Assembly: GCA_964519145.1 (NCBI GenBank)
Contig: CAZFHL010000003.1
Coordinates: 1 to 42,143 of the forward strand
Direction: 5' to 3'
Length of the DNA: 42,143 nucleotides
Origin: an uncultured Candidatus Saccharibacteria bacterium
Lineage (GTDB): Bacteria; Patescibacteriota; Minisyncoccia; Phycocordibacterales; WO2-35-19
The notes below the pieces were generated by a model that saw only the letters and a program-made list of their open reading frames with translations, was not told the origin of the DNA and did no database searches. Below are positions 1 to 12,678 of the stretch, piece by piece; positions within the stretch are counted from its first letter, which is position 1; each line of letters opens with the position of its first letter. A program made the translations under genes and the position numbers.

Positions 1-1
1 T

Positions 2-55
2 GAAAAACTAAAGAAACAAATAGAAGAAGCTGGAGGAAAAGTTACACTTAAATAA
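2..55 (+). CDS. rplL: 3' end of ribosomal protein L7/L12 gene (partial, begins left of the window)
   Basis: Reading from nt 2 gives EKLKKQIEEAGGKVTLK-stop (taa 53-55). The ..EEAGa.V.lK ending is the typical L7/L12 C-terminus. Only 17 codons are visible. Confidence 0.5.
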   Translation, partial: EKLKKQIEEAGGKVTLK

Positions 56-80
56 CATATTATTTAAAACATATAAATAG

Positions 81-110
81 AAAGCCTTGCCAAGTTTATG
101 GCAGGGCTTT
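81..110 (+). terminator. hairpin downstream of rplL (weak intrinsic terminator candidate)
   Basis: aaagccttgcc (81-91) pairs with ggcagggcttt (100-110) with one G-U. Only a short T run follows. Confidence 0.4.
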
Positions 111-188
111 CTATGTCTGATATGGGTCATTTTGAAATATTTGATTTGCTTGCTAGAATTCAAAATATAAATTTAATTTAGAAATAAT

Positions 189-809
189 ATGGACATTTTA
201 GAAAAGCTTTTTGGGAGTTCTGCCAAAGTAAAGATAATAAAATTATATTTGTTAAATCCTGAAATGGTTTTTGATATACCTACAGCTTCTGAGAGAGCCA
301 AGGTCTCAATTTCTGGTGCAAGGACAGAAATAAACAATTTAGAAAAGATTGGTTTTTTGAAACAGAAATCCTATTTTAAAGATGTAAAGATTCAAAGAAA
401 TAGAACAGTTGAGAGTTTTAAAAAAAGAGTAAATGGCTGGACACTTGATCAAAAGTTTCCTCATATAAAATCTCTAGAGTCTTTTCTTTCAAATATAAAT
501 CCGTTTGAACATAAAGAGATAATAAACAAGATATCTAAATCTGGAAAAATTCAACTTCTTGTTATTTCTGGCATCTTCATAAAAAATGAAGATTCAAGAG
601 CTGATCTGCTTATTGTAGGTGACAATATAAAGTTAAGTCATTTGGACAATACCATAAAGATAATTGAATCAGAGATTGGCAAAGAAATAAGATATGTTGT
701 TTTTGAGACAAACGAATTTAAGTATAGATTATCTGTATTTGATAAATTAGTTAGGGATATTTTAGATTATTCTCATGAAAAGATTATAAATAAATTAAAT
801 ATAGAATAG
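189..809 (+). CDS. hypothetical protein, possible N-terminal winged-helix DNA-binding domain
   Basis: 206-aa ORF in the host AT-rich codon style. The N-terminus (KVKIIKLYLLNPEMVFDIPTASERAKVSISGARTEINNLEKIGFL) looks wHTH-like. No catalytic motif recognised. Confidence 0.55.
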   Translation: MDILEKLFGSSAKVKIIKLYLLNPEMVFDIPTASERAKVSISGARTEINNLEKIGFLKQKSYFKDVKIQRNRTVESFKKRVNGWTLDQKFPHIKSLESFLSNINPFEHKEIINKISKSGKIQLLVISGIFIKNEDSRADLLIVGDNIKLSHLDNTIKIIESEIGKEIRYVVFETNEFKYRLSVFDKLVRDILDYSHEKIINKLNIE

Positions 810-870
810 TCGCCCATACTTTAAGTCATATTTTTAGTATAAGTTGGAGGCAGAATCCAGGATTCAAAAC

Positions 871-900
871 TTGACTTTTTAGGTTATTCTGTGATATAAT
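871..900 (+). promoter_or_regulatory. sigma70-like promoter for the G+C-rich gene at 1116
   Basis: TTGACT (871-876), 18-nt spacer, TATAAT (895-900). It would give a ~200-nt leader. Confidence 0.55.
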
Positions 901-927
901 AGGGTATAGAAATTGAAATAATCTTTC

Positions 928-1019
928 ATGTGGTCATAGCTAAAAGTTGCTTAAATATAGGTAATTCACAATAATTCAAAGAAATTAAGTATTTTTTAGC
1001 TATGACTACCAATGTGGTC
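928..1019 (+). repeat. AT-rich hairpin element in the leader, flanked by 8-bp direct repeat atgtggtc
   Basis: gtggtcatagctaaaa (930-945) pairs with ttttagctatgactac (994-1009), 1 mismatch, 48-nt loop. atgtggtc occurs at 928-935 and 1012-1019. The sequence turns G+C-rich right after the second copy. Confidence 0.5.
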
Positions 1020-1115
1020 GTCCTCTAGCATCGCACAACAACCTGCCGTAATCACAGCTCCCTGCTTAACAGGTGGGGAAACAATGCCGACTAACAGTCG
1101 GAGAAGGAAAATATT

Positions 1116-1700
1116 ATGTCGAAATATAATGTATATGTTGAAGATGTGAGCATTGAGGCTCTCTTCAATAAGCTTGGTGGTGTCCGTAGAGTCAAGCGGT
1201 TCCTCGCAGGCAAACTGCTGTTGGTGGAGGCAATGAAGCCAGAGCCACCGTCGGAACCGGCATCGGATTTCATCATCCGTGTGGACCGCTCATTGAGGCC
1301 GAGCTACCCAGACTGGATGAAGAAGTTGAAGCACCCGAATTTGGAGTGCTCGGGACCAGCTGAATACGACCTCTCAAGTGTTGAGCTGTGGTTCCACGAT
1401 GGTCAGCATAGCGGTTCGGTGGATGGCAACACCATCTACAAGCACTTGCAGAAGAACAACGATCTCACCTCGTGCTTGAACCTCCAAGACGGGCTCGCAA
1501 TTCAACAGAAGGGTATCGCCGTGTTCCGTAATTTGTTCGCGGACAAGAAGGTGTTCCTGTGGGGCTCGGTCGTGCAGAGCCGCTACAGTCAACTGATGGT
1601 CCCGTATCTCTACGACAACAGCTACGAGGTTGAATTGAATTGGTTCTGGCTGGACTATAACTGGTACTTGGAATATCCCGCTCTCCTATTCAGTAAGTAG
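1116..1700 (+). CDS. G+C-rich orphan protein (194 aa), function unknown
   Basis: ORF preceded by ggagaaggaaaatattATG (RBS). Composition contrasts strongly with the AT-rich flanks. No motif I can name. Trp/Tyr-rich C-terminus (VELNWFWLDYNWYLEYPALLF). Confidence 0.7.
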   Translation: MSKYNVYVEDVSIEALFNKLGGVRRVKRFLAGKLLLVEAMKPEPPSEPASDFIIRVDRSLRPSYPDWMKKLKHPNLECSGPAEYDLSSVELWFHDGQHSGSVDGNTIYKHLQKNNDLTSCLNLQDGLAIQQKGIAVFRNLFADKKVFLWGSVVQSRYSQLMVPYLYDNSYEVELNWFWLDYNWYLEYPALLFSK

Positions 1701-1769
1701 CACTCTGGACTTAGGTCTTAGATCTCTAATAGCTCAGATAATTTGACCTTAGTCCGCGACTTTGTTTTA

Positions 1770-1812
1770 CCCCCGCATTGGTTTTCGGACCGGTGTGGGG
1801 TTTTCTTTTTTT
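1770..1812 (+). terminator. intrinsic terminator of the G+C-rich gene
   Basis: cccccgcattgg..ccggtgtgggg stem (G-U pairs allowed) ending at 1800, followed by ttttcttttttt. Confidence 0.65.
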
Positions 1813-1926
1813 ATTTTATATTAAAAACTTTTAGCATATTGATTATCCACAAATTATTGTTGAAAATATATTTATTAAGAGTATATTTTATGGTGTAATT
1901 ATTAGTATTATTAAAAATTAACAAAT

Positions 1927-2613
1927 ATGACATTAGATACTTGGAGTGAAGTCCTCACTCTCTCATTTAGAAATCTTTGGGTTGGTGTAGTTGGTTTTGT
2001 ACCAAATTTGGTTATCGCTATTGTAATCGTTTTGCTTGGCTGGGGTATAGGAGCATTATTTGGAAGAGTTGTTTCTCAAATTATTAAAGCTATTAAAATA
2101 GATGAAGCTTTAAGAAAAGCTGGGGTAGAATCATTTTTAAATAGAGGTGGACTTGATTTGAATGCAGGCAATTTTTTGGGTGGCTTAGTTAAGTGGTTTA
2201 TCATGGTTGTCTTTTTGGTGGGAGCATTTGATGTATTAAAACTATCTCAAGTCACAATGTTTTTGAGAGATATATTAGTTTATCTTCCTCAAGTTATTGT
2301 AGCGGTACTTATACTTATAGTCGCAGGCATTGTAGCTGATGCTATGAAAAAAGTAGTACTATCTTCTGCTATGACAGCAAATATTACTTCTGCACCATTT
2401 TTAGCAACTGTTACTAAGTGGGTGATATGGGTATTTGCAATACTAGTAGCTCTTTCTCAATTAGGTATAGCTTCTGGTTTCGTACAAACAATATTTACAG
2501 GTTTGGTGGTGGCTCTATCTTTAGGTTTGGGTCTTTCTTTTGGTTTAGGTGGGCAAGAGGCTGCTTCTAGAGTTATAGAAAAAATAGGTAAAGAAATATC
2601 AGATAAAAAATAA
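1927..2613 (+). CDS. integral membrane protein with repeated TM-helix modules (MscS-N-terminal-like 'conserved TM helix' type)
   Basis: 228 aa with about 6 hydrophobic segments and repeated ..G.....V..L..W.I..... modules. Family-level guess only. Confidence 0.55.
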   Translation: MTLDTWSEVLTLSFRNLWVGVVGFVPNLVIAIVIVLLGWGIGALFGRVVSQIIKAIKIDEALRKAGVESFLNRGGLDLNAGNFLGGLVKWFIMVVFLVGAFDVLKLSQVTMFLRDILVYLPQVIVAVLILIVAGIVADAMKKVVLSSAMTANITSAPFLATVTKWVIWVFAILVALSQLGIASGFVQTIFTGLVVALSLGLGLSFGLGGQEAASRVIEKIGKEISDKK

Positions 2614-2713: not shown

Positions 2714-2741
2714 TTGACATATTTTAAAATCCGATTATACT
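2714..2741 (+). promoter_or_regulatory. candidate promoter upstream of the 23S-5S unit
   Basis: TTGACA (2714-2719), 16-nt spacer, TATACT (2736-2741), about 410 nt upstream of the 23S 5' end. The leader in between is hairpin-rich. Confidence 0.4.
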
Positions 2742-3425
2742 TACGGGTACATATGTTGATTATGTTGATTAATTATAGAGCGTATAAAAGGTGAATATCC
2801 TTTTTGTTTTTGTAAACACGCTCTATAAGAAAGAGCGTTTTTTGTTTAAAAAATTCAATATCCTCATATTTTAAAAATCTAAACATTTTTAGAAGATGAG
2901 GGTAGAGAATACAGTTTTGTTTGAGAGAATGAATTTTGACAAATAACCCTAAAAGTCTGAAAAGATGATTAGGTATATGCCATTGCAACATCGCTTTTAG
3001 ATTAAAATCTAAGGGGTCTTTGTTTGTTGTAAATGGAAAAACTATATAGACTTTTTATTTGGTCTTATATAGCAGAGTAAAATAAAATAAAAATCAATTA
3101 TTTCTTCAAGATGATTGATTTAAAATATTTCTAAAACATTCAGAACAGAGTTGTTCTGGTGGATAGGAAGTTAAGAGCATATGGTGGATGCCTTGGCTAG
3201 AAAAAGCGATGAAGGACGTGAGCTGGCTACGATAAGCTTCGGGGAGGTGCCTAGCAACCTTTGATCCGGAGATGTCCGAATGGGGAAACCCAACTTGCTT
3301 GCAAGTTATCCTGAGCGTAAGCGAAGGATGCAAACCCTGGGAAGTAAAACATTTCAGTACCAGGAGGAAAAGAAACCAAAAAGTATTCCGTAAGTAGCGG
3401 CGAGCGAAAGCGGAGAAGCCCAGAG

Positions 3426-3560
3426 CGTGCGAAACACATAGTTTGTAAAGTTAAAAGTTCATAAAGTTCATAAAGTTTTTAAAGTAGAAAATAAAATTTT
3501 TACTTTATAACTTTTTACTTTATAACTTTATAGACTTTGTGATTTATGTGTTTCGCATGC
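3426..3560 (+). repeat. long AT-rich palindromic hairpin (ataaagt family) inserted in a domain I variable helix of 23S
   Basis: gcgtgcgaaacacata / tatgtgtttcgcatgc base stem encloses arms built of ..ataaagtt.. / ..aactttat.. repeats. The core aaagtttttaaagta-loop-tactttataac is shared with the hairpins at 8356-8452 and 8614-8709. Confidence 0.75.
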
Positions 3561-3767
3561 AGTTGTAAGACGACAACTTCGTATTTATACGAGGAAAGTT
3601 ACAAAATTATTTATTAGAAGAAACTTCTGGAAAGAAGTACCCTAGAGGGTAATAGTCCCGTAATTTAAAATAAATAATCTTTCTTGTTGTTGTTCTTGAG
3701 TACCTCGAGACACGAGTAGCTCGGGGGAATCTACCGGAACTAACCGGTAAGGCTAAATATTTTTCTA

Positions 3768-3809
<42 letters not shown>

Positions 3810-3870
3810 GCCCGGTGAGGGCGGTGAAATAGACCTGAAACTATATGCTTACAAGGAGTCAGAGCGGGTT

Positions 3871-4156
3871 GCATAATGTATAAAATTTTACTCTAAATAA
3901 TGGGGAGATGGAGTCACCCAATCATTCAGAATGGAAAACTAAAAGGAATCTTGGATTAAGACAAACAGCAGTCGCGCTCTGTTGGTTTTGACCAAGAAAG
4001 ACAGAAAGATTATTCTGGGTCATTTTTGGTTGGGTTAAGTTTCCAATACATGAGCTCATGTTTGGTAACAAAATCCTATCATTCCCAGGGGTAGGATTGT
4101 TCTGCAGAGCAATCCTACCCACCCATTATTTAGAGTAAAATTTTTATATATTATGC
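3871..4156 (+). other. intervening sequence (IVS) in 23S helix 25
   Basis: gcataatgtataaaattttactctaaataatgggg (3871-) and cccattatttagagtaaaatttttatatattatgc (-4156) form a ~35-bp stem. It replaces the tip of the helix between caaggagtcagagcgggtt and agtccgtcatggcgtgcc (E. coli ~540-550 region, a classic IVS site). The 210-nt core is itself hairpin-rich, e.g. gggtaggattg..caatcctaccc. Confidence 0.8.
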
Positions 4157-4817
4157 AGTCCGTCATGGCGTGCCTATTGAAGAATGAGCCAACGAGTTAA
4201 TTTATGCGGCTTGCCAAAGCAGTCGACCTGCAGAGGCTAAGTGAAAGCGAGCGTGAATAGCGCGCAATTTGTCGTATATATTAGACCCGAAGCCAGGTGA
4301 GCTTGCCATGGGCAGGGTGAAGTCATTCGAAAGAATGATGGAGGCCCGAACCGGTTGGTCGTGCGATTCCTTCGGATGACCTGTGGTAAGGAGTGAAAAG
4401 CTAATCGAACCTGGTAATAGCTGGTTCTCTCCGAAAGAGCTTTTGGGTTCGCGTCATGCGTTCCTTGCGGGGGTAGAGCACTGGAAGGTCTCGACAGGGA
4501 GAAATCTCGCGAGACCTATCAAACTCCGAATACTGCAAGTAAAAAGTATGACAGTTAGACGGCGGGGGCTAAGCTCCGTTCGTCAAAAGGGAAACAGCCC
4601 AGATCTCTATTTAAGGTCCCTAAATCATAGCTAAGTACACTTAAGGTGGTGACATTTCTCCGACAATGAGGAGGTTGGCTTAGAAGCAGCCATCCTTTAA
4701 AGAAAGCGTAACAGCTCACTCATTCAGAGATTTTGCGCCGAAGATAATCGGGGTTAAGCTATGTACCGAAACTGAGGGTTTGTAAACCTCATCAAAGATT
4801 TGTTCTTTTTGTTTTGT

Positions 4818-4905
4818 GGGGGGATGGCGGAATTGGTAGACGCAACGGACTTAAAATCCGTTGGATATTATATCCGTACGGGTTCGATTCCCGTTCCCCC
4901 TACCA
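4818..4905 (+). tRNA. tRNA-Leu (anticodon UAA), class II with long variable arm, CCA encoded
   Basis: Hand-folded cloverleaf:
- acceptor gggggga/tccccct (G1-U72 wobble)
- D arm gcg-gaattggtaga-cgc
- anticodon stem acgga/tccgt with loop cttaaaa
- variable arm ggata-tta-tatcc
- T arm acggg-ttcgatt-cccgt
- discriminator a, then cca. Confidence 0.85.
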
Positions 4906-4923
4906 CCACTTTTGGTAGAAAGT

Positions 4924-4999
4924 GGGCTTATAGCTCAATGGTTAGAGCAGTCGGCTCATAATCGATTGGTTCTCGGTTCAAGTCCGAGTAAGCCCACCA
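4924..4999 (+). tRNA. tRNA with CAU anticodon (elongator Met or lysidine-dependent Ile2, not initiator), CCA encoded
   Basis: Hand-folded cloverleaf:
- acceptor gggctta/taagccc with a paired 1-72
- D arm gctc-aatggtta-gagc
- anticodon stem gtcgg/tcgat with loop ctcataa
- T arm ctcgg-ttcaagt-ccgag
There is no GGG/CCC run in the anticodon stem, so it is not an initiator. Confidence 0.8.
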
Positions 5000-5040
5000 G
5001 TTTCTTCTAAAAGTTTGGTGAAGGTGTCGGTTTGGTATGT

Positions 5041-5116
5041 GGCCAGTTAGCTCAGATGGAAGAGCAGTGGCCCGATAAGCCACAGGTCGTAGGTTCGAGC
5101 CCTACACTGGCCACCA
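5041..5116 (+). tRNA. tRNA-Ile (anticodon GAU), CCA encoded, with C instead of U at position 33
   Basis: Hand-folded cloverleaf:
- acceptor ggccagt/actggcc
- D arm gctc-agatggaa-gagc
- anticodon stem gtggc/gccac with loop ccgataa
- T arm gtagg-ttcgagc-cctac. Confidence 0.8.
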
Positions 5117-5932
5117 AAATCCAAACAATTTTGACACAATTTTTTTCTGATTTTTTGAAAATCGGATCTTTGATGAGGTTTACAAGCGGTAGGAGAGTAT
5201 TCATAACCGCAGTGAAGCTGAAGGGGTGACCCACAGTGGAGCGTTATGAAGTAAGAATGTTGGCACAAGTAACCACAATGACGCTGAAAACGCGTCACGC
5301 CGAAAGACTAAGGTTTCCTTTCCGATGTCAATCAGGGAAGGGTTAGTCGGTCCTAAGGAGATGACGAAAGTCGCATCCGATGGATTCACGGTTAATATTC
5401 CGTGACCTATATATATTTCGATGGAGGGACGGAGTGTAGTATGCAAAGCACATTATTGGATTTGATGTCTGTGTTGTAAAAATGTTGTGTAGGAAAATCC
5501 GCATAACTTGTTTTAATACAAAATTTAAGCAATATAGCAATTTGGAACTTCGGTTCTGAAGAGTTTGCAAAGCGCGCTTCCAAGAAAAACTTCTAAGATT
5601 AAATATATGTAGACCGTACCGTAAACCGACACAGGTAGTCAGGTCGAGAAGACCAAGGCGAACGAGTGAGATGTCCCCAAGGAACTCGGCAAAAAAGCGG
5701 CCGTACCTTCGGTATAAGGCCTGCCCCACACAAGTGGGGCCGCAGCTAAAGAATCCCTGGCGACTGTTTATCAAAAACACAGCTCCCTGCGAACTCGTAA
5801 GAGGATGTATAGGGGGTGACACCTGACCAATGCCAGAAGGTCAAACAACGACGTTGTGAGAGTCGCAAGATTTTCATGGTGATTGTTGTAAGCCCTGGTG
5901 AATGTCGGCAATAACTATAATTGTCCTAAGGT

Positions 5933-6170
5933 TTTGAGAATTTCATTTAATGAAGTTTTCAAAAGGACTGGGACAGTTATAGAGATAAATAGTTAGACAA
6001 AATTTAAGAGTAAAGAGACAAAATAAAGTTAGTTACACAAAAAAGAAGCTACCTAAATTACAGTAATGTAGTTTTAGTCCAAACATGACAAACAAGCGCA
6101 CCAACGTCATGGTCCCGAATCCCGCTAAGCGGGAAGGGAAAAGATAGAGTCCAACTTGAAGGAATAGTTG
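5933..6170 (+). mobile_element. group I intron at 23S site equivalent to E. coli 1931 (ORF-less, 238 nt)
   Basis: The exon reads cctaaggT|...G|agcgaaattcc and rejoins to the universal CCUAAGGUAGCGAAAUUCC. The 5' exon ends in U and the intron ends in G. A J8/7-P7-like motif aagatagagtcc lies at 6141-6152. The P1 guide was not confidently located. Confidence 0.65.
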
Positions 6171-6292
6171 AGCGAAATTCCTTGTCTGGTAATTGAATTG
6201 CCAGTTTCGAGAGCGATCTCGATAAAAAATTCGGCTTATAACGGTGGAGCCCGACTCGAAAGAAGGGTAATACCGTGGGAAGTTGTTCAGTA

Positions 6293-6427
6293 CTAATTTT
6301 TGGAAAGAAGAAAACCCCTCAGGGTTCTCTGGGGGGGTTTAGGATCGCGATTTGCCCAATATGTAACAATCGCAGAGATTATTACAGCTAAAAAAGGTAG
6401 GATCAAAAAAAGCGATTCGTTGTTCAT
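6293..6427 (-). CDS. small hydrophobic peptide (44 aa) encoded antisense to the rRNA: MNNESLFLILPFLAVIISAIVTYWANRDPKPPQRTLRGFLLSKN
   Basis: ATG at 6427 is preceded by gagga plus 7 nt. The peptide has one predicted TM helix followed by a basic tail. It uses the same frame as track ORF 6293..6475, whose listed start is the TTG of the -35 box. An imperfect GC hairpin plus a T run overlaps the last codons. Confidence 0.5.
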   Translation of the reverse strand: MNNESLFLILPFLAVIISAIVTYWANRDPKPPQRTLRGFLLSKN

Positions 6428-6445
6428 GTAGGTATCCTCTGGAAG

Positions 6446-6475
6446 GATATAAACATAGCAGAGATTAATTGTCAA
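6446..6475 (-). promoter_or_regulatory. candidate promoter of peptide A
   Basis: Minus strand: TTGACA (6475-6470), 18-nt spacer, TATATC (6451-6446). The -10 element is only moderate. Confidence 0.4.
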
Positions 6476-6577
6476 TAATATTTTGACTCCAAAAATTAGT
6501 ACTGAATTAACCCCGTAACGACTTATGTACCACTAACTAGTGGCGCATAGATAGCTTAGGTAATACAATTATATTGT

Positions 6578-7063
6578 ATGAACAGCTATAACACGCCGAC
6601 TCTGCGAAGAGAGCTCGCAAACTACATCTCCGGATATGTTGATGGAGAAGGATGTTTCTCTGTTTCGGTATCGAAACGAGAGAAATTAAAAATCGGATGG
6701 GAAGTGAAGCCAAGTTTCTGTGTCGGTCAAAATTATGATCGGCGCGAAGTACTTGACCTCATGATTGTTTACTTCGGTTGCGGTCATATACGCCGCGATT
6801 GGGGAGACAGAACCCTGAAGTATGAAGTGAGAAAGATTAACGATCTCTTAGAGAAAGTCATTCCACACTTTGAAAAATTTCCTTTAAAGTCAGCAAAGCA
6901 AAAAGATTTCCTGCGGTTTGCAGAAATCTGCCGTCAGATGAAAGTTTTAGAGCACCACAAAGTGAGCGGTTTGAGAAAAATTCTCAAAAGCGCTTACAAG
7001 ATGAATGGATCAGGGAAGCGCAAGTTACCTTTATCCATGATTCTCAAAACAATTCGCAGATGA
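6578..7063 (+). CDS. LAGLIDADG homing endonuclease (single-motif, homodimer type)
   Basis: 161 aa with LANYISGYVDGEGCFSV (LAGLIDADG motif) near the N-terminus. It lies inside the group I intron, and its stop codon overlaps the intron core motif. Confidence 0.85.
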   Translation: MNSYNTPTLRRELANYISGYVDGEGCFSVSVSKREKLKIGWEVKPSFCVGQNYDRREVLDLMIVYFGCGHIRRDWGDRTLKYEVRKINDLLEKVIPHFEKFPLKSAKQKDFLRFAEICRQMKVLEHHKVSGLRKILKSAYKMNGSGKRKLPLSMILKTIRR

Positions 7064-7446
7064 AGATATAGTCTAATGCCTACAGTAATGTGGGGTAGGA
7101 GATTCTGCTCGCGCGGGCAGAATAGTCAAACTCAAATGAAGTTCAGACGCGCACGAATGGTGTAACGACTGGGGAACTGTCTCGGGGACTCGCTCGGTGA
7201 AAATACAGTACCGGTGAAGATGCCGGTTACCTGCAGTTAGACGAAAAGACCCCGGAAGCTTTACTGTAATTTGGCATTGAGGATATGTTTTTACTGCGTA
7301 GCATAGGTGGGAGGATTTGAAGTTTGCCTTTTGGGGCAGATGGATCCGTCAGTGAAATACCACTCTGTATTGACATATTTTCTAACCTGTTCGGCAAAAA
7401 CGGACAGAGACAGTGCCTGATGGGCAGTTTTAGTGGGGCGCTATCC

Positions 7447-7492
7447 TTCAGTATTTAAAATTTAAAAAGATTTAATTTTTTTGAATACTGAA
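7447..7492 (+). repeat. small cargo-less hairpin related to the cassette terminal repeats
   Basis: ttcagtatttaaaa.. pairs with ..ttttgaatactgaa. The arms resemble the outer repeats of cassette A (ttcagtact) and cassette B (attcaaa). It sits at the very 5' end of the L2262 intron. Confidence 0.5.
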
Positions 7493-7635
7493 TCCATGGC
7501 GCCTCCAGAGATTTGTCATCTCAAAACAAACAAATAAGGGGGACCATAGAGCGAAACCTCTATGAGAAAAGTTAGCTATATGCTGAGAAATCTCTTTGAG
7601 ATAATCAGCAGGGAAGTTAAATATTCAAATTTTTG

Positions 7636-7668
7636 GAAAAAGAAAATGCCAGCTCTTACGCGACTGGC
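7636..7668 (-). terminator. terminator-like hairpin after peptide B
   Basis: Minus strand: gccag-tcgcgtaagag-ctggc followed by attttcttttt. Confidence 0.45.
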
Positions 7669-7679
7669 TTACGGTCTTG

Positions 7680-7829
7680 TTAGATGAGTTGGAACTTTCG
7701 GAAAAAGCCAATGAGGCAAAGACCGAAAATCAAAGGAACGGTGATCACCACAAAAACCATCTGATCTTGGTGGTGTTGGGGATGGGTCAATGAATGCTGG
7801 TGACCCAACCCAACCAACGCTAACCACAT
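7680..7829 (-). CDS. small peptide (49 aa) encoded antisense to the rRNA: MWLALVGLGHQHSLTHPQHHQDQMVFVVITVPLIFGLCLIGFFRKFQLI
   Basis: AAGGAG, 6 nt, then ATG (7829); stop taa at 7682-7680. The peptide has a His/Gln-rich head, one hydrophobic helix and a basic tail. It is in a different frame from track ORF 7669..7878, which starts at the TTG of the -35 box. Confidence 0.55.
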   Translation of the reverse strand: MWLALVGLGHQHSLTHPQHHQDQMVFVVITVPLIFGLCLIGFFRKFQLI

Positions 7830-7849
7830 AAGGAACTCCTTTCGTGGTC

Positions 7850-7878
7850 ATTATGGCAAAACAATGACTTTTTGTCAA
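7850..7878 (-). promoter_or_regulatory. near-consensus promoter of peptide B
   Basis: Minus strand: TTGACA (7878-7873), exactly 17-nt spacer, CATAAT (7855-7850). Confidence 0.6.
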
Positions 7879-8355
7879 GCAAATCTTGACTCCAAAAATT
7901 TGAATATTTAATCCTTCAGAGACTAAACGCTAACCTTCTTGAAAAAGAAGATGATATAGTCCGAACTTTGTGGCGACACAAAGAGTAATAATTTATCCGT
8001 TAGTTATTGATTAACACAATGCCTAAAGAGTAACGGAGGAGCCTATTAAGGTCAGCTAGGCGTGAATGGAAACCATGCCGATAGTGTATAGGCACAAGCT
8101 GGCTTAACTGCAAGACGTAAGTGTCACGCAGATGCGAAAGCAGAGCTAAATGAACCGATCGTCCGCGTTAGACGCGGCGAAAGATTATCTGACAAAAGCT
8201 ACTCCGGGGATAACAGGCTGGTACTGCCTAAGCGTCCAGAGCGACGGCAGTGTTCGGCACCTCGATGTCGGCTCATCTTATCCCGGGGGTGGAGAAGCTC
8301 CCAAGGGTATGGCTGTTCGCCATTTAAAAAGATACGCGAGCTGGGTTCAGACCGT

Positions 8356-8452
8356 ACAGAAGTTATAAAGTTAAAAGTTTGTAAAGTTTTTAAAGTAAGG
8401 GAATTAATTTTTTACTTTATAAACTTTATAAACTTTATAAACTTTCAACTGT
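8356..8452 (+). repeat. AT-rich palindromic hairpin (ataaagt family) in the P1 loop of the L2593 intron
   Basis: acag (8356-8359) pairs with ctgt (8449-8452). The right arm contains tttataaac x3 in tandem. The core is taaagtttttaaagta-loop-tactttataaac. Confidence 0.7.
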
Positions 8453-8613
8453 TGTGCAATCTGAATCCCTTCGAGAAATTATAAATAATTTTGTTTTAGT
8501 TTTTTCGTTTTAAAATTATTAAAGATATCAAGACTTTAATAATAAATGTTAGTAGATACCCGCCTTAGCTAAAAAAGCTATGGCGGGCGATGCAATCAAA
8601 TCACGGCGGTCCG

Positions 8614-8709
8614 ATGATTTATAAAGTAGAAAGTCCGTAAAGTTTTTAAAGTAAGTGCAAAATGTATTTACTTTATAAACATTATAACTTTAAAAACTTT
8701 ATGAATCAT
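8614..8709 (+). repeat. AT-rich palindromic hairpin (ataaagt family), P2 position of the L2593 intron
   Basis: atgatttataaagt pairs with actttatgaatcat. The core is gtaaagtttttaaagta-loop-tactttataaac. Confidence 0.7.
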
Positions 8710-9081
8710 TGGAATAAGTTGACTTATATCGGTGAAGTCCAATTTGGATAACACCGAGGGAACCGCGTCTGACGCGGACCCGTAGAGACTAAACGTCAAC
8801 AATTTGTTTTCTTTTGTAAGAGGTGAGGGGAGAATAAGCAATCAGTCAACCCAAACGACGAAGTATGTCGGACTGTATTTGCAGTTTCCATTTTGCAAAA
8901 AATGGATTCCATGCGTGCCACGGTACCCTCCCTCCTCTCTTACAGAGGAAAACAGATTAAGCTATAGTCCATTGCCACAAGTAATTGTGGGGTTCCGCCT
9001 TCGCTAAAAGCTATGGCGGACAAATCAAGCGTGAGACAGGTTGGTCTCCTATCTACTGCAGGCGTTGATTCTTGAGGGGAT

Positions 9082-9112
<31 letters not shown>

Positions 9113-9476
9113 TGACCTCTGGTGTGCCTGCTGTTCTGCCAAGAGCATCGCAGGGTAGCTAAGTCGGGAAAGGATAACCTCTGAAAGCATCTAAGAGGGA
9201 AGCCCACCCCAAGATTAGGAATCGTTAAGGATCGTGAGAGATGATCACGTTGATAGGCGCTAGGTGTAAGTATTGTAAAATATTAAGCCGAGGCGTACTA
9301 ATTTTCCGATTTCTTTCCACCAGAAACATTTTGTTTCTGTTTTTAGAAAATTTTACTCTGCTATATGGGACTTTCAAGTCTTATAATTGTTTTTTTAAAT
9401 AAAATATATAAATAGATTTATTTCAAAAATTCTCGCAAGAAAGACTTTTGAAAGAGATTTAATATTTGAATATTGT

Positions 9477-9585
9477 GTGTTGGTGGCTTAACGCTAAGGT
9501 CACACCCGTTCTCATTCCGAACACGGAAGTTAAGCTTGGTAGTGCCGATGGTACTCGCAAGGGGAGAGTAGGTAGCCGCCAGCAC
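9477..9585 (+). rRNA. rrf: 5S rRNA
   Basis: gtgttggtggc...cccgttctcattccgaacacggaagttaagc...gccgatggtact...ggggagagtaggtagccgccagcac. The terminal helix is gtgttggtggc/gccgccagcac (G-U pairs). It lies about 150 nt after the 23S gene. Confidence 0.9.
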
Positions 9586-10115: not shown

Positions 10116-11519
10116 ATGAACGAATGGGCTAGCAGAAGAAAAAATATTTATTTATTTATTTTGGTAATATTCTTATCGGGTATTTCTTTTTACTTTTTTT
10201 ACAATTTTTGGTATCAAAAACCCAGCTGTTTTGATAATTTAAAAAATGGAGATGAGACGGGTATTGATTGTGGAGGGAAATGTCAATCTGTTTGTCAGGG
10301 AGAAACAATACAACCTATTATAAAATGGGATCCAAGGTTATTTAATGTAGATGCAAACATTTGGAGCCTTTTAGTTTATGTAGAAAATCCAAATATAAAT
10401 CATAAAATTTCTTATTTGCCATATAAAATCACAATTTATAATGATAAGAGTGATGTTATTTTTGAAAAAAGTGGCGCAACTATTTTGCCGAAAAATAAAA
10501 CGGTGGGTATTTTTGAAGGTAATATAGATTTAAAATTAAATAGACCACAAAGAGCTTTGTTTGAAATTGAGAAAGGTATTTTGTGGGAAGTCGATAAGAC
10601 TGATAATTATAATGATTTAAAAATAACACATACTCCTCTTATAAAATTAGATTCTTTTCCTAAAATAGAGGCCGAGGTAAAAAATGATGGACTAACTAAT
10701 TTAGAGAATATTGAATTAATCGTGGCTATTTTTGATGGTAAAGATAATGTAATAGCATCTTCTCGTACTTTTGTAGATAAATTAAATAAAAACACATCAA
10801 AGCAAATATTTTTTACTTGGAATAAGCCATTTGATTTAGGTATTAAAAGATGTGATAAAAATTCAGATATTGTTCTTCTTTTTGACAGGTCTGGTTCTAT
10901 GGCTTCGGTATCTATAAAACCTAAACAACCTTTGACTGATGCAAAAATTGCAACAATATCATTTTTAGAAAATTTATCAAAAGAAGATCAGGTTTCTGTT
11001 GTTTCTTTTGCAAATAATGCAACAGATCCTATTGATTTAACTCTGACAAGTGATTTTAAAGAAGTTGAAAATATTTTAACTCAAATAGATATATTTAATC
11101 AAGGTTTACAATATACAAATATATTTGAAGCTCTAAGATTTGGAAGACAGGAGCTTTTGTCTGCTAGAACAAAATCAGATTCAAATAAAATTATAATTTT
11201 ATTTACAGATGGGATAGCAAACGCTCCATTGGTTCAGAGCGGTAATACAGAAAAAGAAGACATAAATTATGCAGAAAATTTGGCATTAAATGAGTCTTTA
11301 AATATTAAAAAAGATAACATAGATATATATACTGTTGGTTTAGGTAAAAATATAAATGAATCCTTTCTTAAAAAAATAGCCTCTAGTGATAAAAAATATT
11401 TTTATGCACCTACTACTGATGATTTGTTTCAGATTTATAAAGATATCTCTTACCAAATTTGTAAAGAAGTACCGGCAAGAATAGAAATTACTCATAAAAT
11501 ATTTGGAAATTTAAATTAA
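10116..11519 (+). CDS. membrane-anchored von Willebrand factor A (vWA) domain protein
   Basis: N-terminal TM segment (IYLFILVIFLSGISFYFFY), a Cys-rich stretch, a MIDAS-type motif LLFDRSGSMAS, and a later ILFTDG. Confidence 0.7.
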   Translation: MNEWASRRKNIYLFILVIFLSGISFYFFYNFWYQKPSCFDNLKNGDETGIDCGGKCQSVCQGETIQPIIKWDPRLFNVDANIWSLLVYVENPNINHKISYLPYKITIYNDKSDVIFEKSGATILPKNKTVGIFEGNIDLKLNRPQRALFEIEKGILWEVDKTDNYNDLKITHTPLIKLDSFPKIEAEVKNDGLTNLENIELIVAIFDGKDNVIASSRTFVDKLNKNTSKQIFFTWNKPFDLGIKRCDKNSDIVLLFDRSGSMASVSIKPKQPLTDAKIATISFLENLSKEDQVSVVSFANNATDPIDLTLTSDFKEVENILTQIDIFNQGLQYTNIFEALRFGRQELLSARTKSDSNKIIILFTDGIANAPLVQSGNTEKEDINYAENLALNESLNIKKDNIDIYTVGLGKNINESFLKKIASSDKKYFYAPTTDDLFQIYKDISYQICKEVPARIEITHKIFGNLN

Positions 11520-11523
11520 AATT

Positions 11524-12678
11524 ATGCCAATTTTTTTGAAGAGAATCACAGAATCAATAGATTGGATTTTATTTTTAAGTGTAATTTTGGTATCTGTTGC
11601 TGGTCTTTTAACACTAAACTCTTTTGTTGATAATACTGATTATGATGTTAATTTTAGAAATTTATTTAATAAACAGCTGATTTGGTTGTCTTTTTCTGTT
11701 TTTATATTTTTTATTGCAAGTTTGATTGATTGGCGTTTTTTAAGAAAAAGCTCATCTGTTTTTATAATATTTATTTCTTCTTGTTTTGTTTTGTTGATGC
11801 TGTTTATTTCAGGTTCAATTTTTAAAGGTGCCCGGAGTTGGTTTGATCTTGGTTTTTTTGCTTTTCAACCCGTTGATTTAGTAAAAATAGTCTTGGTTTT
11901 AGTTTTAGCAAAATATTTTAGTAGAAGGCATATAGAAATAGCTAATATAAGGCATATATTTGTATCTGGATTTTATGCCTTTATTTTATTTTTATTAGTT
12001 TTATTACAACCAGATTTTGGTTCAGCAATAATTATATTTTTTATATGGCTTTCTGTTATTTTAATATCTGGTGTGTCTAAAAAACATTTATTAATGGTTT
12101 TTTTGATGGCTAGCATTAGTTTCTCTTGTCTTTGGTTTTTTGGTTTTAAAGATTATCAAAAAGCGAGAATACGAACTTTTATAGACCCATTAACTGATAT
12201 AAGAGGAGCTGGATATAATGTATATCAATCTGTTATAGCTGTAGGATCTGGAGGTTTTTTGGGCAAAGGTATTGGACTTGGAAGTCAATCTAAATTACAA
12301 TTTTTACCCGAATATGAGACGGATTTTATATTTGCAGCTTTTAGTGAAGAGTGGGGTTTTGTTGGTGTTGTTATAATGATATTTTTATATGGAGTAATTT
12401 TTTTCAAGATATTAAATATTTCTAAAAGGGGTGCGAGCAATTTTGAAACTTTTTATGGGCTGGGTTTATTGTCTATTTTTATTTCCCATTTTATTATTCA
12501 TGTTGGTATGAATATCGGTCTCATGCCTGTGACGGGTATAACAATGCCTTTTATGAGTTATGGAGGTTCTCATTTGGTGGCAGAATTTTTAGGCTTAGGT
12601 ATTTTGATGGGTATGAAAAATTATTCACTTAATTCTGATAGGGCATTATTTTTAGATGGTAGTCCAGATTCTGTATAG
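11524..12678 (+). CDS. SEDS-family peptidoglycan polymerase (FtsW/RodA/SpoVE)
   Basis: About 10 TM segments, plus LQPDFGSA, YQSVIAVGSGGFLGKGIGLGSQSKLQFLPEYETDFIFAAFSEEWGF and PFMSYGGS blocks typical of the family. Confidence 0.85.
   Translation: MPIFLKRITESIDWILFLSVILVSVAGLLTLNSFVDNTDYDVNFRNLFNKQLIWLSFSVFIFFIASLIDWRFLRKSSSVFIIFISSCFVLLMLFISGSIFKGARSWFDLGFFAFQPVDLVKIVLVLVLAKYFSRRHIEIANIRHIFVSGFYAFILFLLVLLQPDFGSAIIIFFIWLSVILISGVSKKHLLMVFLMASISFSCLWFFGFKDYQKARIRTFIDPLTDIRGAGYNVYQSVIAVGSGGFLGKGIGLGSQSKLQFLPEYETDFIFAAFSEEWGFVGVVIMIFLYGVIFFKILNISKRGASNFETFYGLGLLSIFISHFIIHVGMNIGLMPVTGITMPFMSYGGSHLVAEFLGLGILMGMKNYSLNSDRALFLDGSPDSV

Follow-up and report, generated by a model that had tools for sequence, protein, structure and literature searches.

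The helix 45 insert and its three tRNA genes

Our analysis places three tRNA genes inside the 23S rRNA gene of the window, which is the whole 42,143-nt stretch of DNA that was analysed (Table 1). The gene belongs to a member of the Patescibacteria (candidate phyla radiation, CPR) that probably resembles Parcubacteria/Zambryskibacteria. These are the only tRNA genes that ARAGORN identified in the 42 kb, exactly three in total, and all of them are on the + strand within one insert. In an Rfam LSU alignment the whole insert falls into a hairpin loop, at model position 1218, with both flanks aligned. A blastn comparison with E. coli 23S pairs window positions 4282-4777 with E. coli 667-1163 and window positions 5248-5434 with E. 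coli 1245-1432. Since both flanks align to one LSU model, and likewise to the 23S of E. coli, they belong to one contiguous gene and not to two partial copies. The insert occupies the tip of helix 45 (H45; E. coli ~1164-1185), the site of the known helix-45 intervening sequences (IVSs). The original prediction had placed an insert at helix 45 of a contiguous 23S gene, with three clean cloverleaf tRNAs with encoded CCA on the rRNA strand; the LSU alignment and blastn agree with the first point, and ARAGORN and Rfam with the second. A composite pattern of a 23S motif, a gap and a tRNA T-arm is expected to match 0 times, as judged from 100 shuffles of the window.

Table 1. Positions in the window of the 23S rRNA gene, its candidate promoter and the parts of the helix 45 insert.
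Feature	Position	Strand	Basis
Candidate promoter of the 23S-5S transcript, TTGACA-16-TATACT	2714..2741	+	Promoter scan, 11/12 matches; consensus match only
23S rRNA gene, host of the insert	3161..9340 (3′ end approximate)	+	Rfam LSU_rRNA_bacteria (1684.6 bits, match starting at 3161) and blastn against E. coli 23S
5′ arm of the extended helix-45 stem	4778..4799 (pairs with 5166-5187)	+	Inverted repeat, Rfam structure line, MFE fold
GTTCTTT motif of the spacer that separates the first tRNA from the 5′ arm	4802..4808	+	Read from the sequence
tRNA-Leu(UAA), class II, long variable arm, A73, encoded CCA	4818..4905	+	ARAGORN; Rfam 62.5 bits
CAU-anticodon tRNA, most likely tRNA-Ile2, G1-C72, A73, encoded CCA	4924..4999	+	ARAGORN; Rfam 71.2 bits
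tRNA-Ile(GAU), A73, encoded CCA	5041..5116	+	ARAGORN; Rfam 67.0 bits
Terminal hairpin, 8 bp, 3-nt loop, directly abutting the 3′ arm	5147..5165	+	Predicted folds
3′ arm of the extended helix-45 stem	5166..5187	+	Inverted repeat, fold, covariation

Colinear blocks with E. coli 23S reach window position 9218 (E. coli 2782) in the blastn comparison, so we place the end of the gene at about 9340. The end at 8417 given by Rfam was rejected as an artefact caused by an intron at E. coli position 2593. An Rfam scan found no 16S gene within 3.1 kb upstream of the 23S gene. The promoter scan that yielded the candidate in Table 1 also returned a further promoter-like site at 2680-2707. The only ORFs in the insert were short ones with TTG or GTG starts that overlap the tRNAs; four were scanned and three of the four had no Pfam match. 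An S23p-type (23S_rRNA_IVP) or other ORF was therefore rejected as a component of the insert, the best Pfam match being DUF5348 at a sub-threshold E of 0.17.

The three tRNAs are canonical. Against the Rfam tRNA model RF00005 (gathering score 29) they gave E-values of 1e-11 to 1e-14, ARAGORN drew each as a cloverleaf with a 7-nt anticodon loop, and the MFE fold of tRNA-Ile(GAU) in isolation was the cloverleaf. The codons ATA, ATT and TTA rank third, fifth and seventh in codon use in the window (31% GC), and the three cargo tRNAs would decode 17.8% of the codons in its genes. The CAU-anticodon tRNA is most likely a tRNA-Ile2 of the ileX, lysidine type, which would read AUA. It is elongator-type and not initiator-like, with G1-C72 and an anticodon stem without the three consecutive G-C pairs of initiators. 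Among the E. coli matches listed, its top eight were all annotated as tRNA-Ile (82-84% identity over 91-100% of the query). The first of these features and the best matches also make an identity as initiator or elongator tRNA-Met less likely. Further, Ile is encoded most often by ATA in the window, and the genome would thus need a tRNA of the tRNA-Ile2 type.

Closing stem, GTTCTTT motif and terminal hairpin

The insert is closed by a long stem whose 5′ arm consists of the native H45 stem, in which the Rfam structure line places GUUUGUAA, and a 14-bp extension. An 18-bp perfect inverted repeat had been reported here earlier (4782-4799/5166-5183). The repeat is indeed perfect, but its length was underestimated: it extends over 20 nt (4780-4799/5166-5185) and, with the pairs U4779-G5186 and G4778-C5187, passes into the native stem of helix 45. 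The resulting 22 continuous pairs (4778-4799/5166-5187) form a long double-stranded stem, some two helical turns in length, of the kind found in RNase III-type IVSs. When region 4760-5205 was folded, a z-score of -9 relative to shuffles was obtained and the long stem was retained in the MFE fold. Homologous stems were compared using 81 distinct arm pairs, in which 96.2% of cells were paired and compensatory changes were present at 20 of the 22 pairs. The covariation score was 0.597, against 0.248 after shuffling and ~0.1 when the partners were slid. The arm sequence CTTCAT/ATGAAG is common across CPR lineages.

A second recurrent element is the heptamer GTTCTTT, which is present in 51 of 86 distinct H45 inserts where ~4 would be expected. 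It occurs about once per insert, is never on the antisense strand, and usually lies 2-17 nt upstream of the 5′ end of a tRNA or tRNA-like unit. The motif is also found beside free-standing tRNA genes: in locus L005 it lies inside the 23-nt spacer that separates the Val and Pro tRNAs, and in L072 it precedes an odd tRNA. Several inserts have it immediately after a CCA end. Based on these positions, GTTCTTT could be a processing site or else a promoter element. If it were part of a promoter of the cassette's own, the tRNAs would have a transcript of their own, which might also take in the 3′ two-thirds of the 23S, and tRNA output would be uncoupled from the rRNA promoter. The sense-only occurrence of the motif, its spacing from tRNA 5′ ends and its presence near free-standing tRNA genes would all suit such an arrangement. 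However, GTTCTTT is unlike any known -10 or -35 element, and a motif lying between two tRNAs, or right after CCA ends, fits a processing site better. In addition, no sigma-70-like promoter was predicted inside 4780-5185, although such a result is not conclusive for CPR. An internal promoter is, in our judgement, very unlikely.

The terminal hairpin is a third shared element. Hairpins ending no more than 2 nt from the 3′ arm were found in 69 of the 86 distinct inserts, as opposed to ~10 in shuffles. Taken together, these comparisons reveal a conserved H45 module composed of a covarying 21-22-bp stem, GTTCTTT, cargo and a terminal hairpin.

Recurrence and turnover of the cargo

A survey of CPR relatives, which had been proposed along with the original prediction, recovered the architecture in dozens of independent assemblies. 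Among species-representative Patescibacteria genomes, 29 23S genes have an H45 insert with contiguous flanks. In 23 of the 29 the insert holds one to three tRNA or tRNA-like units on the sense strand, and the anticodon loops of some units are aberrant. This proportion overstates the frequency of tRNA cargo because the search of the genome collection demanded a tRNA T-arm motif. Ten of the 43 matches in that collection were without 23S flanks and were left out as chance hits or hits of another kind (L003, L004, L006, L009, L015, L021, L026, L030, L035 and L040). In an Rfam scan of eight of the loci, tRNAs of 39-70 bits lay within the LSU matches at all 8. H45 cargo is present in complete or near-complete genomes too, among them OZ253947.1, JACKGF010000001.1, CAWJHU010000001.1 and JALOQM010000001.1. 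In a metagenome sample drawn blind to cargo, 62 of 79 distinct H45 sequences had an insert and 19 had tRNA or tRNA-like units; 17 of the 79 were without an insert, and many inserts were without a recognisable unit. All 61 tRNA or tRNA-like calls, from 43 inserts, were on the rRNA sense strand. The window is therefore one member of a widespread CPR class and not a singleton, and the tRNA or tRNA-like cargo of the module is exchangeable. Since the same arrangement occurs with other tRNAs in dozens of related genomes, some tRNAs are probably cut from the LSU rRNA precursor.

This recurrence also bears on whether the locus could be a chimera or pseudogene, in which flanks from different or dead 23S copies were joined through a tRNA cluster. 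Such an origin is effectively refuted. The flanks are contiguous on one LSU model and on E. coli 23S, the stem arms are perfectly complementary across the insert, and synteny around the 23S gene is conserved among relatives. The same architecture in dozens of independent assemblies, which come from different projects, rules out an assembly chimera.

With the window insert as blastn query, and with a synteny search anchored on the MscS-like protein upstream of the 23S gene, L146 was the only locus found to share array ancestry with the window. It has a homologous three-unit array, of which units 1 and 3 are without D and anticodon arms. The CAU tRNA differs from its L146 homologue at 12 positions (~16% divergence), with pairs assigned by standard tRNA numbering and checked against ARAGORN drawings. 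Ten of the differences are in stems, where eight make up four fully compensated pairs, two change a G-U to a Watson-Crick pair, and no pair is broken; the other two are in loops, at positions 16 and 59. This pattern of substitution indicates that the CAU tRNA evolves under constraint for tRNA structure. For Leu and Ile(GAU), the window has canonical genes where L146 has decayed homologous units, and these decayed units were the only orthologues of the two genes that we found.

Beyond L146, the insert is absent from the syntenic relatives L168 and L172, and L170, L171 and L174 have just tRNA-like units with aberrant anticodon arms. Cargo is wholly different between 23S genes that are ~94% identical, as it is between syntenic relatives. 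Many inserts hold decayed minihelices, and some units have anticodon loops of 6 or 8 nt; L101 is an example with minihelices alone. Groundwater and sediment metagenomes are the source of L101, L170 and L171. In the decayed units a 7-bp acceptor-like stem, often the T-arm, and the discriminator and CCA are retained and the anticodon arm is gone. These comparisons indicate that cargo turns over fast and that decay to tRNA-like minihelices is frequent. Because cargo is so often absent, aberrant or decayed in relatives, H45 cargo would often be dispensable for decoding.

With this in mind, we considered whether the tRNA genes are redundant passengers, that is, recent and decaying duplicates with little or no decoding role, in an IVS that is excised and degraded. 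The cargo differences among near-identical 23S genes and syntenic relatives, the truncated units of L146, and the many inserts reduced to minihelix remnants alone, or with units that have altered anticodon loops, all favour this explanation. However, every tRNA of the window is canonical (62-71 bits, with 7-nt anticodon loops, A73 and CCA), and over the ~16% divergence from L146 the window's Leu and Ile genes stayed canonical, with changes in the CAU tRNA either compensated or in loops. CPR genomes are small, and redundant tRNA genes are unusual in them. On balance, we regard passengers of this kind as unlikely in the window.

The units might instead be kept mainly because their minihelices recruit RNase P and 3′-end enzymes to cut the pre-23S, with decoding optional, an arrangement that resembles the tRNA punctuation of mitochondria. 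Retention of acceptor-like stem, T-arm, discriminator and CCA with loss of the anticodon arm is what this would predict, and the strict sense orientation of the units and the conservation of module architecture around a variable cargo are in keeping with it. Nevertheless, inserts or units are missing from many H45 sequences, so cutting at H45 is not required, and the covarying stem of 21-22 bp already suffices as a substrate for RNase III. If cutting alone were selected for, the anticodon arms and identity elements seen in the window would also not be kept. We consider it quite unlikely that this role accounts for the window's tRNAs.

Proposed release of the tRNAs and relation to known systems

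Based on these observations, we think it fairly probable that the insert is a helix-45 IVS with a three-tRNA cassette that is released from the pre-23S RNA, leaving a split 23S rRNA. The cassette would be transcribed within the pre-23S RNA, where the extended H45 stem of 22 bp would form and the three tRNAs would fold into cloverleaves. RNase P would cleave the 5′ end of each tRNA, the 3′ trailers would be trimmed to the encoded CCA, and RNase III would trim the stem, perhaps aided by a further endonuclease that acts close to GUUCUUU. CPR have kept both RNase III (PMC12641178) and RNase P RNA (PMC8172020). The predicted output is three mature tRNAs, which would be aminoacylated and used in decoding, and a 23S rRNA divided in two, with one piece covering roughly domains 0-II and the other roughly III-VI. 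What is left of the H45 pairing, along with the tertiary structure of the ribosome, may keep these pieces together, as in the Salmonella-type fragmented 23S. As in the original prediction, the three tRNAs would be obtainable only by cutting the pre-23S, and their release from it would lock their dosage to rRNA synthesis and tie their supply to ribosome synthesis.

A broader reading can be put forward tentatively, and we hold it to be possible but on the doubtful side when all of its parts are taken jointly. The H45 cassette would be ancient and vertically inherited in Patescibacteria and would act as a platform for the expression of exchangeable tRNAs. Its loop would capture tRNA genes with GUUCUUU-marked leaders, and the tRNAs would be expressed with the pre-23S and released by tRNA-processing enzymes and RNase III, so that the 23S would be obligatorily split in many CPR lineages. 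Redundant tRNAs would decay to acceptor/T-arm minihelices that could still serve as entry sites for RNase P and 3′-end enzymes, while the window's high-demand Leu(UAA), Ile2 and Ile(GAU) genes would be expressed only via the pre-23S.

The closest known counterparts are the helix-45 IVSs of Salmonella, Yersinia, Campylobacter, Leptospira and Coxiella, which occupy the same site, the tip of helix 45. In these, as in the window, a long and mostly double-stranded stem-loop of 100-450 nt takes the place of the native loop; the Coxiella IVS is reported to be 428 nt in length and located in H45 (PMC4990558). [quoted passage not shown] A survey of CPR guessed that its inserts at site 23IS4 that are not introns belong to this type of IVS (PMC11270868). 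In contrast to known IVSs, which are empty or hold an S23p ORF, the window insert carries three tRNA genes and no Pfam-matching ORF, and tRNA-processing enzymes alone could do the cutting. The conserved features of the CPR module (CTTCAT/ATGAAG arms, GTTCTTT and terminal hairpin) are also shared across CPR lineages and are not sporadic.

tRNAs are likewise co-transcribed with rRNA from the spacers of rRNA operons (16S-tRNAIle-tRNAAla-23S, and distal tRNAs after 5S), and the sequence of an E. coli rRNA operon shows both spacer and distal tRNAs. Spacer tRNAs are freed by RNase P and 3′ processing, and the rRNAs are parted from one another in the same way. The classic example of a spacer tRNA is tRNA-Ile(GAU), but here it lies inside the 23S gene and not between genes. 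Release of tRNAs from this position would necessarily break the mature rRNA.

Split organellar LSU rRNAs offer another likeness. Tetrahymena mitochondrial LSU is arranged as alpha-tRNALeu-LSU beta and the mitochondrial rRNA of Chlamydomonas is in pieces, in both cases split with tRNA genes between the pieces. The mitochondrial LSU of the oyster is reported to be split as well (PMC2996981). Such organelles resemble the window in that rRNA is made in pieces with tRNA genes between them and with tRNA processing as punctuation. However, their break points are different, the pieces are often scrambled or on separate transcripts, and there is no conserved closing stem, whereas the window comes from a free-living-type bacterial chromosome, its pieces follow in order, and its RNase III-like stem covaries.

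In the openly accessible full-text literature we found no 23S intervening sequence described as carrying tRNA genes, in accord with the earlier remark that no IVS with tRNA cargo was known. The word tRNA is absent from the 2024 survey of CPR rRNA insertions by Tsurumaki et al., and "tRNA gene" and H45 are absent from Tsurumaki et al. 2022. If expressed as we infer, the cassette would be a bacterial gene-within-gene arrangement for which we found no description, in which a mature rRNA is broken to make tRNAs. It would directly and stoichiometrically link ribosome synthesis to the supply of high-demand tRNAs in the one AT-rich, streamlined genome examined. It would also account for some of the uncharacterised insertions, not of intron type, which surveys have reported at the H45 site in CPR, and would predict fragmented 23S rRNA in many CPR lineages. 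Such fragmentation would matter for measures of RNA integrity, for rRNA depletion and for the profiling of rRNA by long reads. tRNA genes hidden in rRNA annotations may drop out of assessments of CPR completeness or decoding capacity, and minihelices and GUUCUUU could provide a natural series for studying tRNA-processing enzymes in rRNA maturation.

The introns of CPR rRNA genes (group I/II, with homing endonucleases; Brown et al. 2015; Tsurumaki et al. 2022, 2024) occur in the same organisms and the same gene as the H45 insert. Unlike them, the H45 insert lacks both a group I fold and an endonuclease, and religation is not expected. Four intron-type inserts are also present in the window's 23S gene, one of them with a LAGLIDADG ORF.

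The tRNA cassette in helix 45

Our analysis has confirmed that a tRNA-bearing H45 insert, a long stem-loop that replaces the tip of 23S rRNA helix 45, is a real feature of the window, and the genomic architecture is essentially certain. This was demonstrated by a residue-level alignment to the Rfam bacterial large subunit (LSU) model, which placed the whole insert in the hairpin loop of helix 45 (model position 1218) with both flanks aligning normally. In agreement, blastn against E. coli 23S rRNA matched 4282-4777 and 5248-5434 of the window to E. coli positions 667-1163 and 1245-1432. The insert thus lies at helix 45 of one 23S gene between contiguous helix-45 surroundings, as originally predicted, and all three tRNAs fall within a single Rfam LSU hit; that assembly joined unrelated pieces is vanishingly unlikely. 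The inverted repeat, described earlier as a perfect 18-bp one, is present with slightly longer arms, being perfect over 20 nt (4780-4799/5166-5185), and U-G and G-C pairs extend it into the native H45 stem to give 22 continuous pairs. Folding of 4760-5205 kept this long stem (z = -9 versus shuffles). Open reading frames in the insert had no significant Pfam match.

Over the 42-kb window ARAGORN detected three tRNA genes and no others, each on the rRNA strand. They were also called by the Rfam tRNA model (gathering score, 29 bits), and each has A73 and an encoded CCA end, which upholds the original reading of them as CCA-encoding Leu-UAA, CAU and Ile-GAU tRNAs. An initiator identity for the CAU tRNA was ruled out by its G1-C72 pair and by an anticodon stem without three consecutive G-C pairs. 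All eight of the top E. coli matches listed are annotated as tRNA-Ile (82-84% identity), with the ileX type among those aligned. In the window's genes ATA is the commonest Ile codon (577 of 1167) and the third commonest codon overall, and such heavy usage means that the organism needs an AUA decoder. The CAU gene probably encodes a tRNA-Ile2 of the lysidine type. Between them, the tRNAs of the cassette would decode TTA/TTG, ATA and ATT/ATC, codons that make up 17.8% of those in 30 ORFs of the window (31% GC).

Features of the 23S rRNA region of the window
Feature	Position	Strand	Location or evidence
23S rRNA gene	3161 to about 9340		Rfam LSU start; blastn against E. coli 23S
Third stem-closed insert	3425-3560		near Rfam model position 283; ~119 nt beyond model
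Second IVS-like insert (~290 nt)	3865-4162		helix 25 (Rfam model position 583); stem-closed
GTTCTTT	4802-4808	+	H45 insert
tRNA-Leu(taa)	4818-4905	+	ARAGORN; Rfam tRNA, 62.5 bits
CAU tRNA	4924-4999	+	ARAGORN; Rfam tRNA, 71.2 bits
tRNA-Ile(gat)	5041-5116	+	ARAGORN; Rfam tRNA, 67.0 bits
Terminal hairpin	5147-5165		adjoins 3′ arm of H45 insert
Intron-type insertion	5933-6170		E. coli 1931; not recognised by Rfam as group I
Intron-type insertion	6193-7138		E. coli ~1951; not recognised by Rfam as group I; LAGLIDADG ORF 6578-7063
Intron-type insertion	7448-8021		E. coli 2262; Rfam group I intron
Intron-type insertion	8356-9029		E. coli 2593; Rfam group I intron
5S gene	9479-9584		downstream of 23S

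Recurrence and turnover of the cargo

One genome per species (GTDB representatives) was scanned with a pattern of conserved 23S motif, gap and tRNA T-arm. Forty-three loci were obtained, 29 of them with window-like 23S flanks on both sides of an H45 insert, and nearly all of these 29 are titled as Patescibacteria (CPR) lineages (Nomura-, Kaiser-, Wolfe- and Taylorbacteria, Paceibacterota/Parcubacteria, 'Saccharibacteria'). By ARAGORN, 23 of the 29 inserts carry 1-3 tRNA or tRNA-like units, the scan pattern itself having required a T-arm, and Rfam placed tRNAs of 39-70 bits within LSU hits at all eight loci tested. The cargo sets are highly varied and include Tyr; Gly+Val; Lys; Lys+Phe; Gly+Trp; Thr+Gln+Asn; Trp+Ala+Ile(GAU); and Asn+Phe+Lys. 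Because the genome scan demanded a T-arm, a cargo-blind scan of metagenome contigs was added, the probe being a 19-mer on the 5′ side of H45. Of the 79 distinct H45 sequences, 17 had no insert and 62 had one, which added roughly 30 to about 710 nt to the uninserted length; tRNA(-like) units were called by ARAGORN in 19 of the 79, and 14 of these units looked canonical. The tRNA(-like) calls number 61 over 43 inserts, and every one has the sense orientation of the rRNA. This survey of related CPR 23S genes shows that tRNA cargo recurs at H45, and the window case is a member of a widespread CPR class, not a single one.

The taxon labels deserve comment. Several TPA_asm loci (L008, L013, L017, L039 and others) bear the GenBank title 'uncultured Candidatus Saccharibacteria', and L008 has the same insert as L174, whose contig shows synteny with the window. 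The protein homologues of the window are named Zambryskibacteria/Parcubacteria, and labels below 'Patescibacteria' look unreliable. Locus L038, titled 'uncultured proteobacterium', also has tRNA-Lys as H45 cargo, and the stem of its insert is of another type, seen in L012 as well.

Around the cargo lies a conserved module. The 22-pair H45 helix is 96.2% paired over 81 distinct arm pairs, with both-side changes at 20 pairs and a covariation score of 0.597, versus 0.248 when shuffled and about 0.1 with partners slid; its centre is also conserved in sequence (CTTCAT/ATGAAG). A small hairpin adjoins the 3′ arm in 69 of 86 inserts, versus about 10 in shuffles. The heptamer GTTCTTT occurs in 51 of 86 distinct inserts, versus about 4 expected (shuffle maximum, 10), at about one per insert in L005-L165 and never on the antisense strand. 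It follows the 5′ arm directly or separates two units; in 22 of 27 cases, 2-17 nt lie between its end and the 5′ end of the next tRNA(-like) unit. It is also found between two free-standing tRNA genes, Val and Pro, at L005. Possible roles for GTTCTTT are those of a processing site, promoter element or recombination core. The motif lends some support to a cassette driven by its own GTTCTTT-associated promoter, but this would account less well for the three canonical, high-demand tRNAs of the window, and we consider it highly improbable. The promoter scan predicted no sigma-70 promoter within the insert.

In contrast to this module, the cargo itself changes. The 23S genes nearest to the window's (about 94% identity in the flanking core) hold wholly different cargo. 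Of the syntenic relatives, L168 and L172 show a plain short H45, and L170, L171 and L174 contain tRNA-like units whose anticodon arms are aberrant. L146 alone has an array of common ancestry with that of the window. Its first unit, the counterpart of tRNA-Leu, is reduced to an acceptor/T-arm-like minihelix with a CCA end, its third has an aberrant anticodon arm, and its second is an intact CAU tRNA. This CAU tRNA differs from the window's at 12 of 76 positions with no pair disrupted: in standard tRNA numbering, eight differences form four fully compensated pairs (5-68, 6-67, 28-42, 29-41), two turn G-U into Watson-Crick pairs (positions 43 and 31), and two are in loops (16 and 59).

Many 'tRNA-less' inserts hold minihelices of the form GGAGGGG...CCCCTCC(G/A)CCA. 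They resemble tRNA cargo that has decayed while retaining the elements that tRNA end-processing enzymes recognise. Different, absent or decayed cargo in relatives indicates that H45 cargo is often dispensable for decoding. Such relatives give some support to the view that the window's tRNAs are passengers in decay, which we regard as unlikely, and to the view that the units serve mainly as processing punctuation, which seems slightly less likely again; both are weaker accounts of three canonical tRNAs in high demand. A canonical state kept over such divergence makes selection as tRNA probable, and all three window units are probably under such selection.

Several structural details were also noted. 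Minihelices were seen in L101, L153, L053, L079, L102 and L156, and as the first unit of L146, with a 7-bp acceptor-like stem (often GGAGGGG/CCCCTCC), a discriminator and CCA, and neither a D arm nor an anticodon arm. The anticodon UUA (ARAGORN 'Stop') is seen in tRNA-like genes at L018 (3193-3267), L114 and L145. L170 (12667-12760) and L171 have a CAU-loop unit whose anticodon stem is longer by several pairs, and several other units have anticodon loops of 6 or 8 nt.

Predicted processing and known systems

It is known that tRNAs embedded in rRNA transcripts are freed by RNase P and 3′ processing. We predict that the cassette is transcribed as part of pre-23S, with candidate promoters at 2680-2741, and that the H45 stem and cloverleaves fold in the precursor. 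The three tRNAs would be freed by RNase P and RNase III, together with trimming of the 3′ ends back to the encoded CCA, and the 23S would be left in two pieces. This full chain is reasonably likely. Both RNase III (PMC12641178) and RNase P RNA (PMC8172020) are kept in CPR.

In both position and structure the insert qualifies as an H45 intervening sequence (IVS), but it lacks an S23p ORF, and its excision is only predicted. Functionally, the cassette resembles the spacer tRNAs of rRNA operons and the tRNA-punctuated split LSU rRNAs of some mitochondria, including those of Tetrahymena and Chlamydomonas. The oyster is a further mitochondrial split-LSU example (PMC2996981). A comprehensive survey of CPR rRNA insertions (PMC11270868) describes inserts at the H45 site as short, non-intron and 'probably' RNase III-type IVSs; the word tRNA is absent from it, and its 2022 companion paper mentions neither H45 nor tRNA genes. 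The literature searched yielded no bacterial tRNA genes nested in an rRNA gene and, as the original prediction had it, no described IVS with tRNA cargo. The H45 tRNA cassette is apparently a hitherto undescribed CPR class, one that experts on rRNA processing or on CPR biology would find unexpected.

Host gene and neighbourhood

The Rfam LSU end at 8417 is an artefact caused by the last intron-type insertion (E. coli position 2593), the true 23S end being near 9340. All four intron-type insertions are confined to the 3′ half of the gene. The helix-25 insert, in which ARAGORN found no tRNA, is closed by a ~40-nt imperfect inverted repeat with 23 perfect pairs (3882-3904/4122-4144) and has a strong internal hairpin (4089-4120); the arms of the third insert (3425-3451/3534-3560) are 78% complementary. 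Rfam detected no 16S gene within 3.1 kb upstream of the 23S in the window. The two strong sigma-70-like promoter matches there (10/12 and 11/12) are followed by a terminator-like hairpin and T-run (2818-2838), which still leaves ~320 nt to the 5′ end of the 23S. The arrangement may be one of leader/antitermination, or the hairpin may be the upstream gene's terminator.

Homologues of the upstream MscS-like protein (80-86% identical) are named, for example, Candidatus Zambryskibacteria or Parcubacteria group, and their contigs keep the order L10, L7/L12, 205-aa hypothetical protein, MscS-like, 23S-5S, VWA and FtsW. The window organism is a CPR/Patescibacteria bacterium, probably of the Parcubacteria. 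Synteny was compared over window 1-2613 and 10116-12678; in the Zambryskibacteria-like relatives (L166-L175) the 16S is unlinked to the 23S, and many contigs end right at the 23S. Further downstream, a 726-aa ORF (24544-26724) with weak matches to TrwB_AAD_bind and TraG-D_C, domains of type IV secretion coupling proteins, is surrounded by a long run of glycosyltransferase genes.
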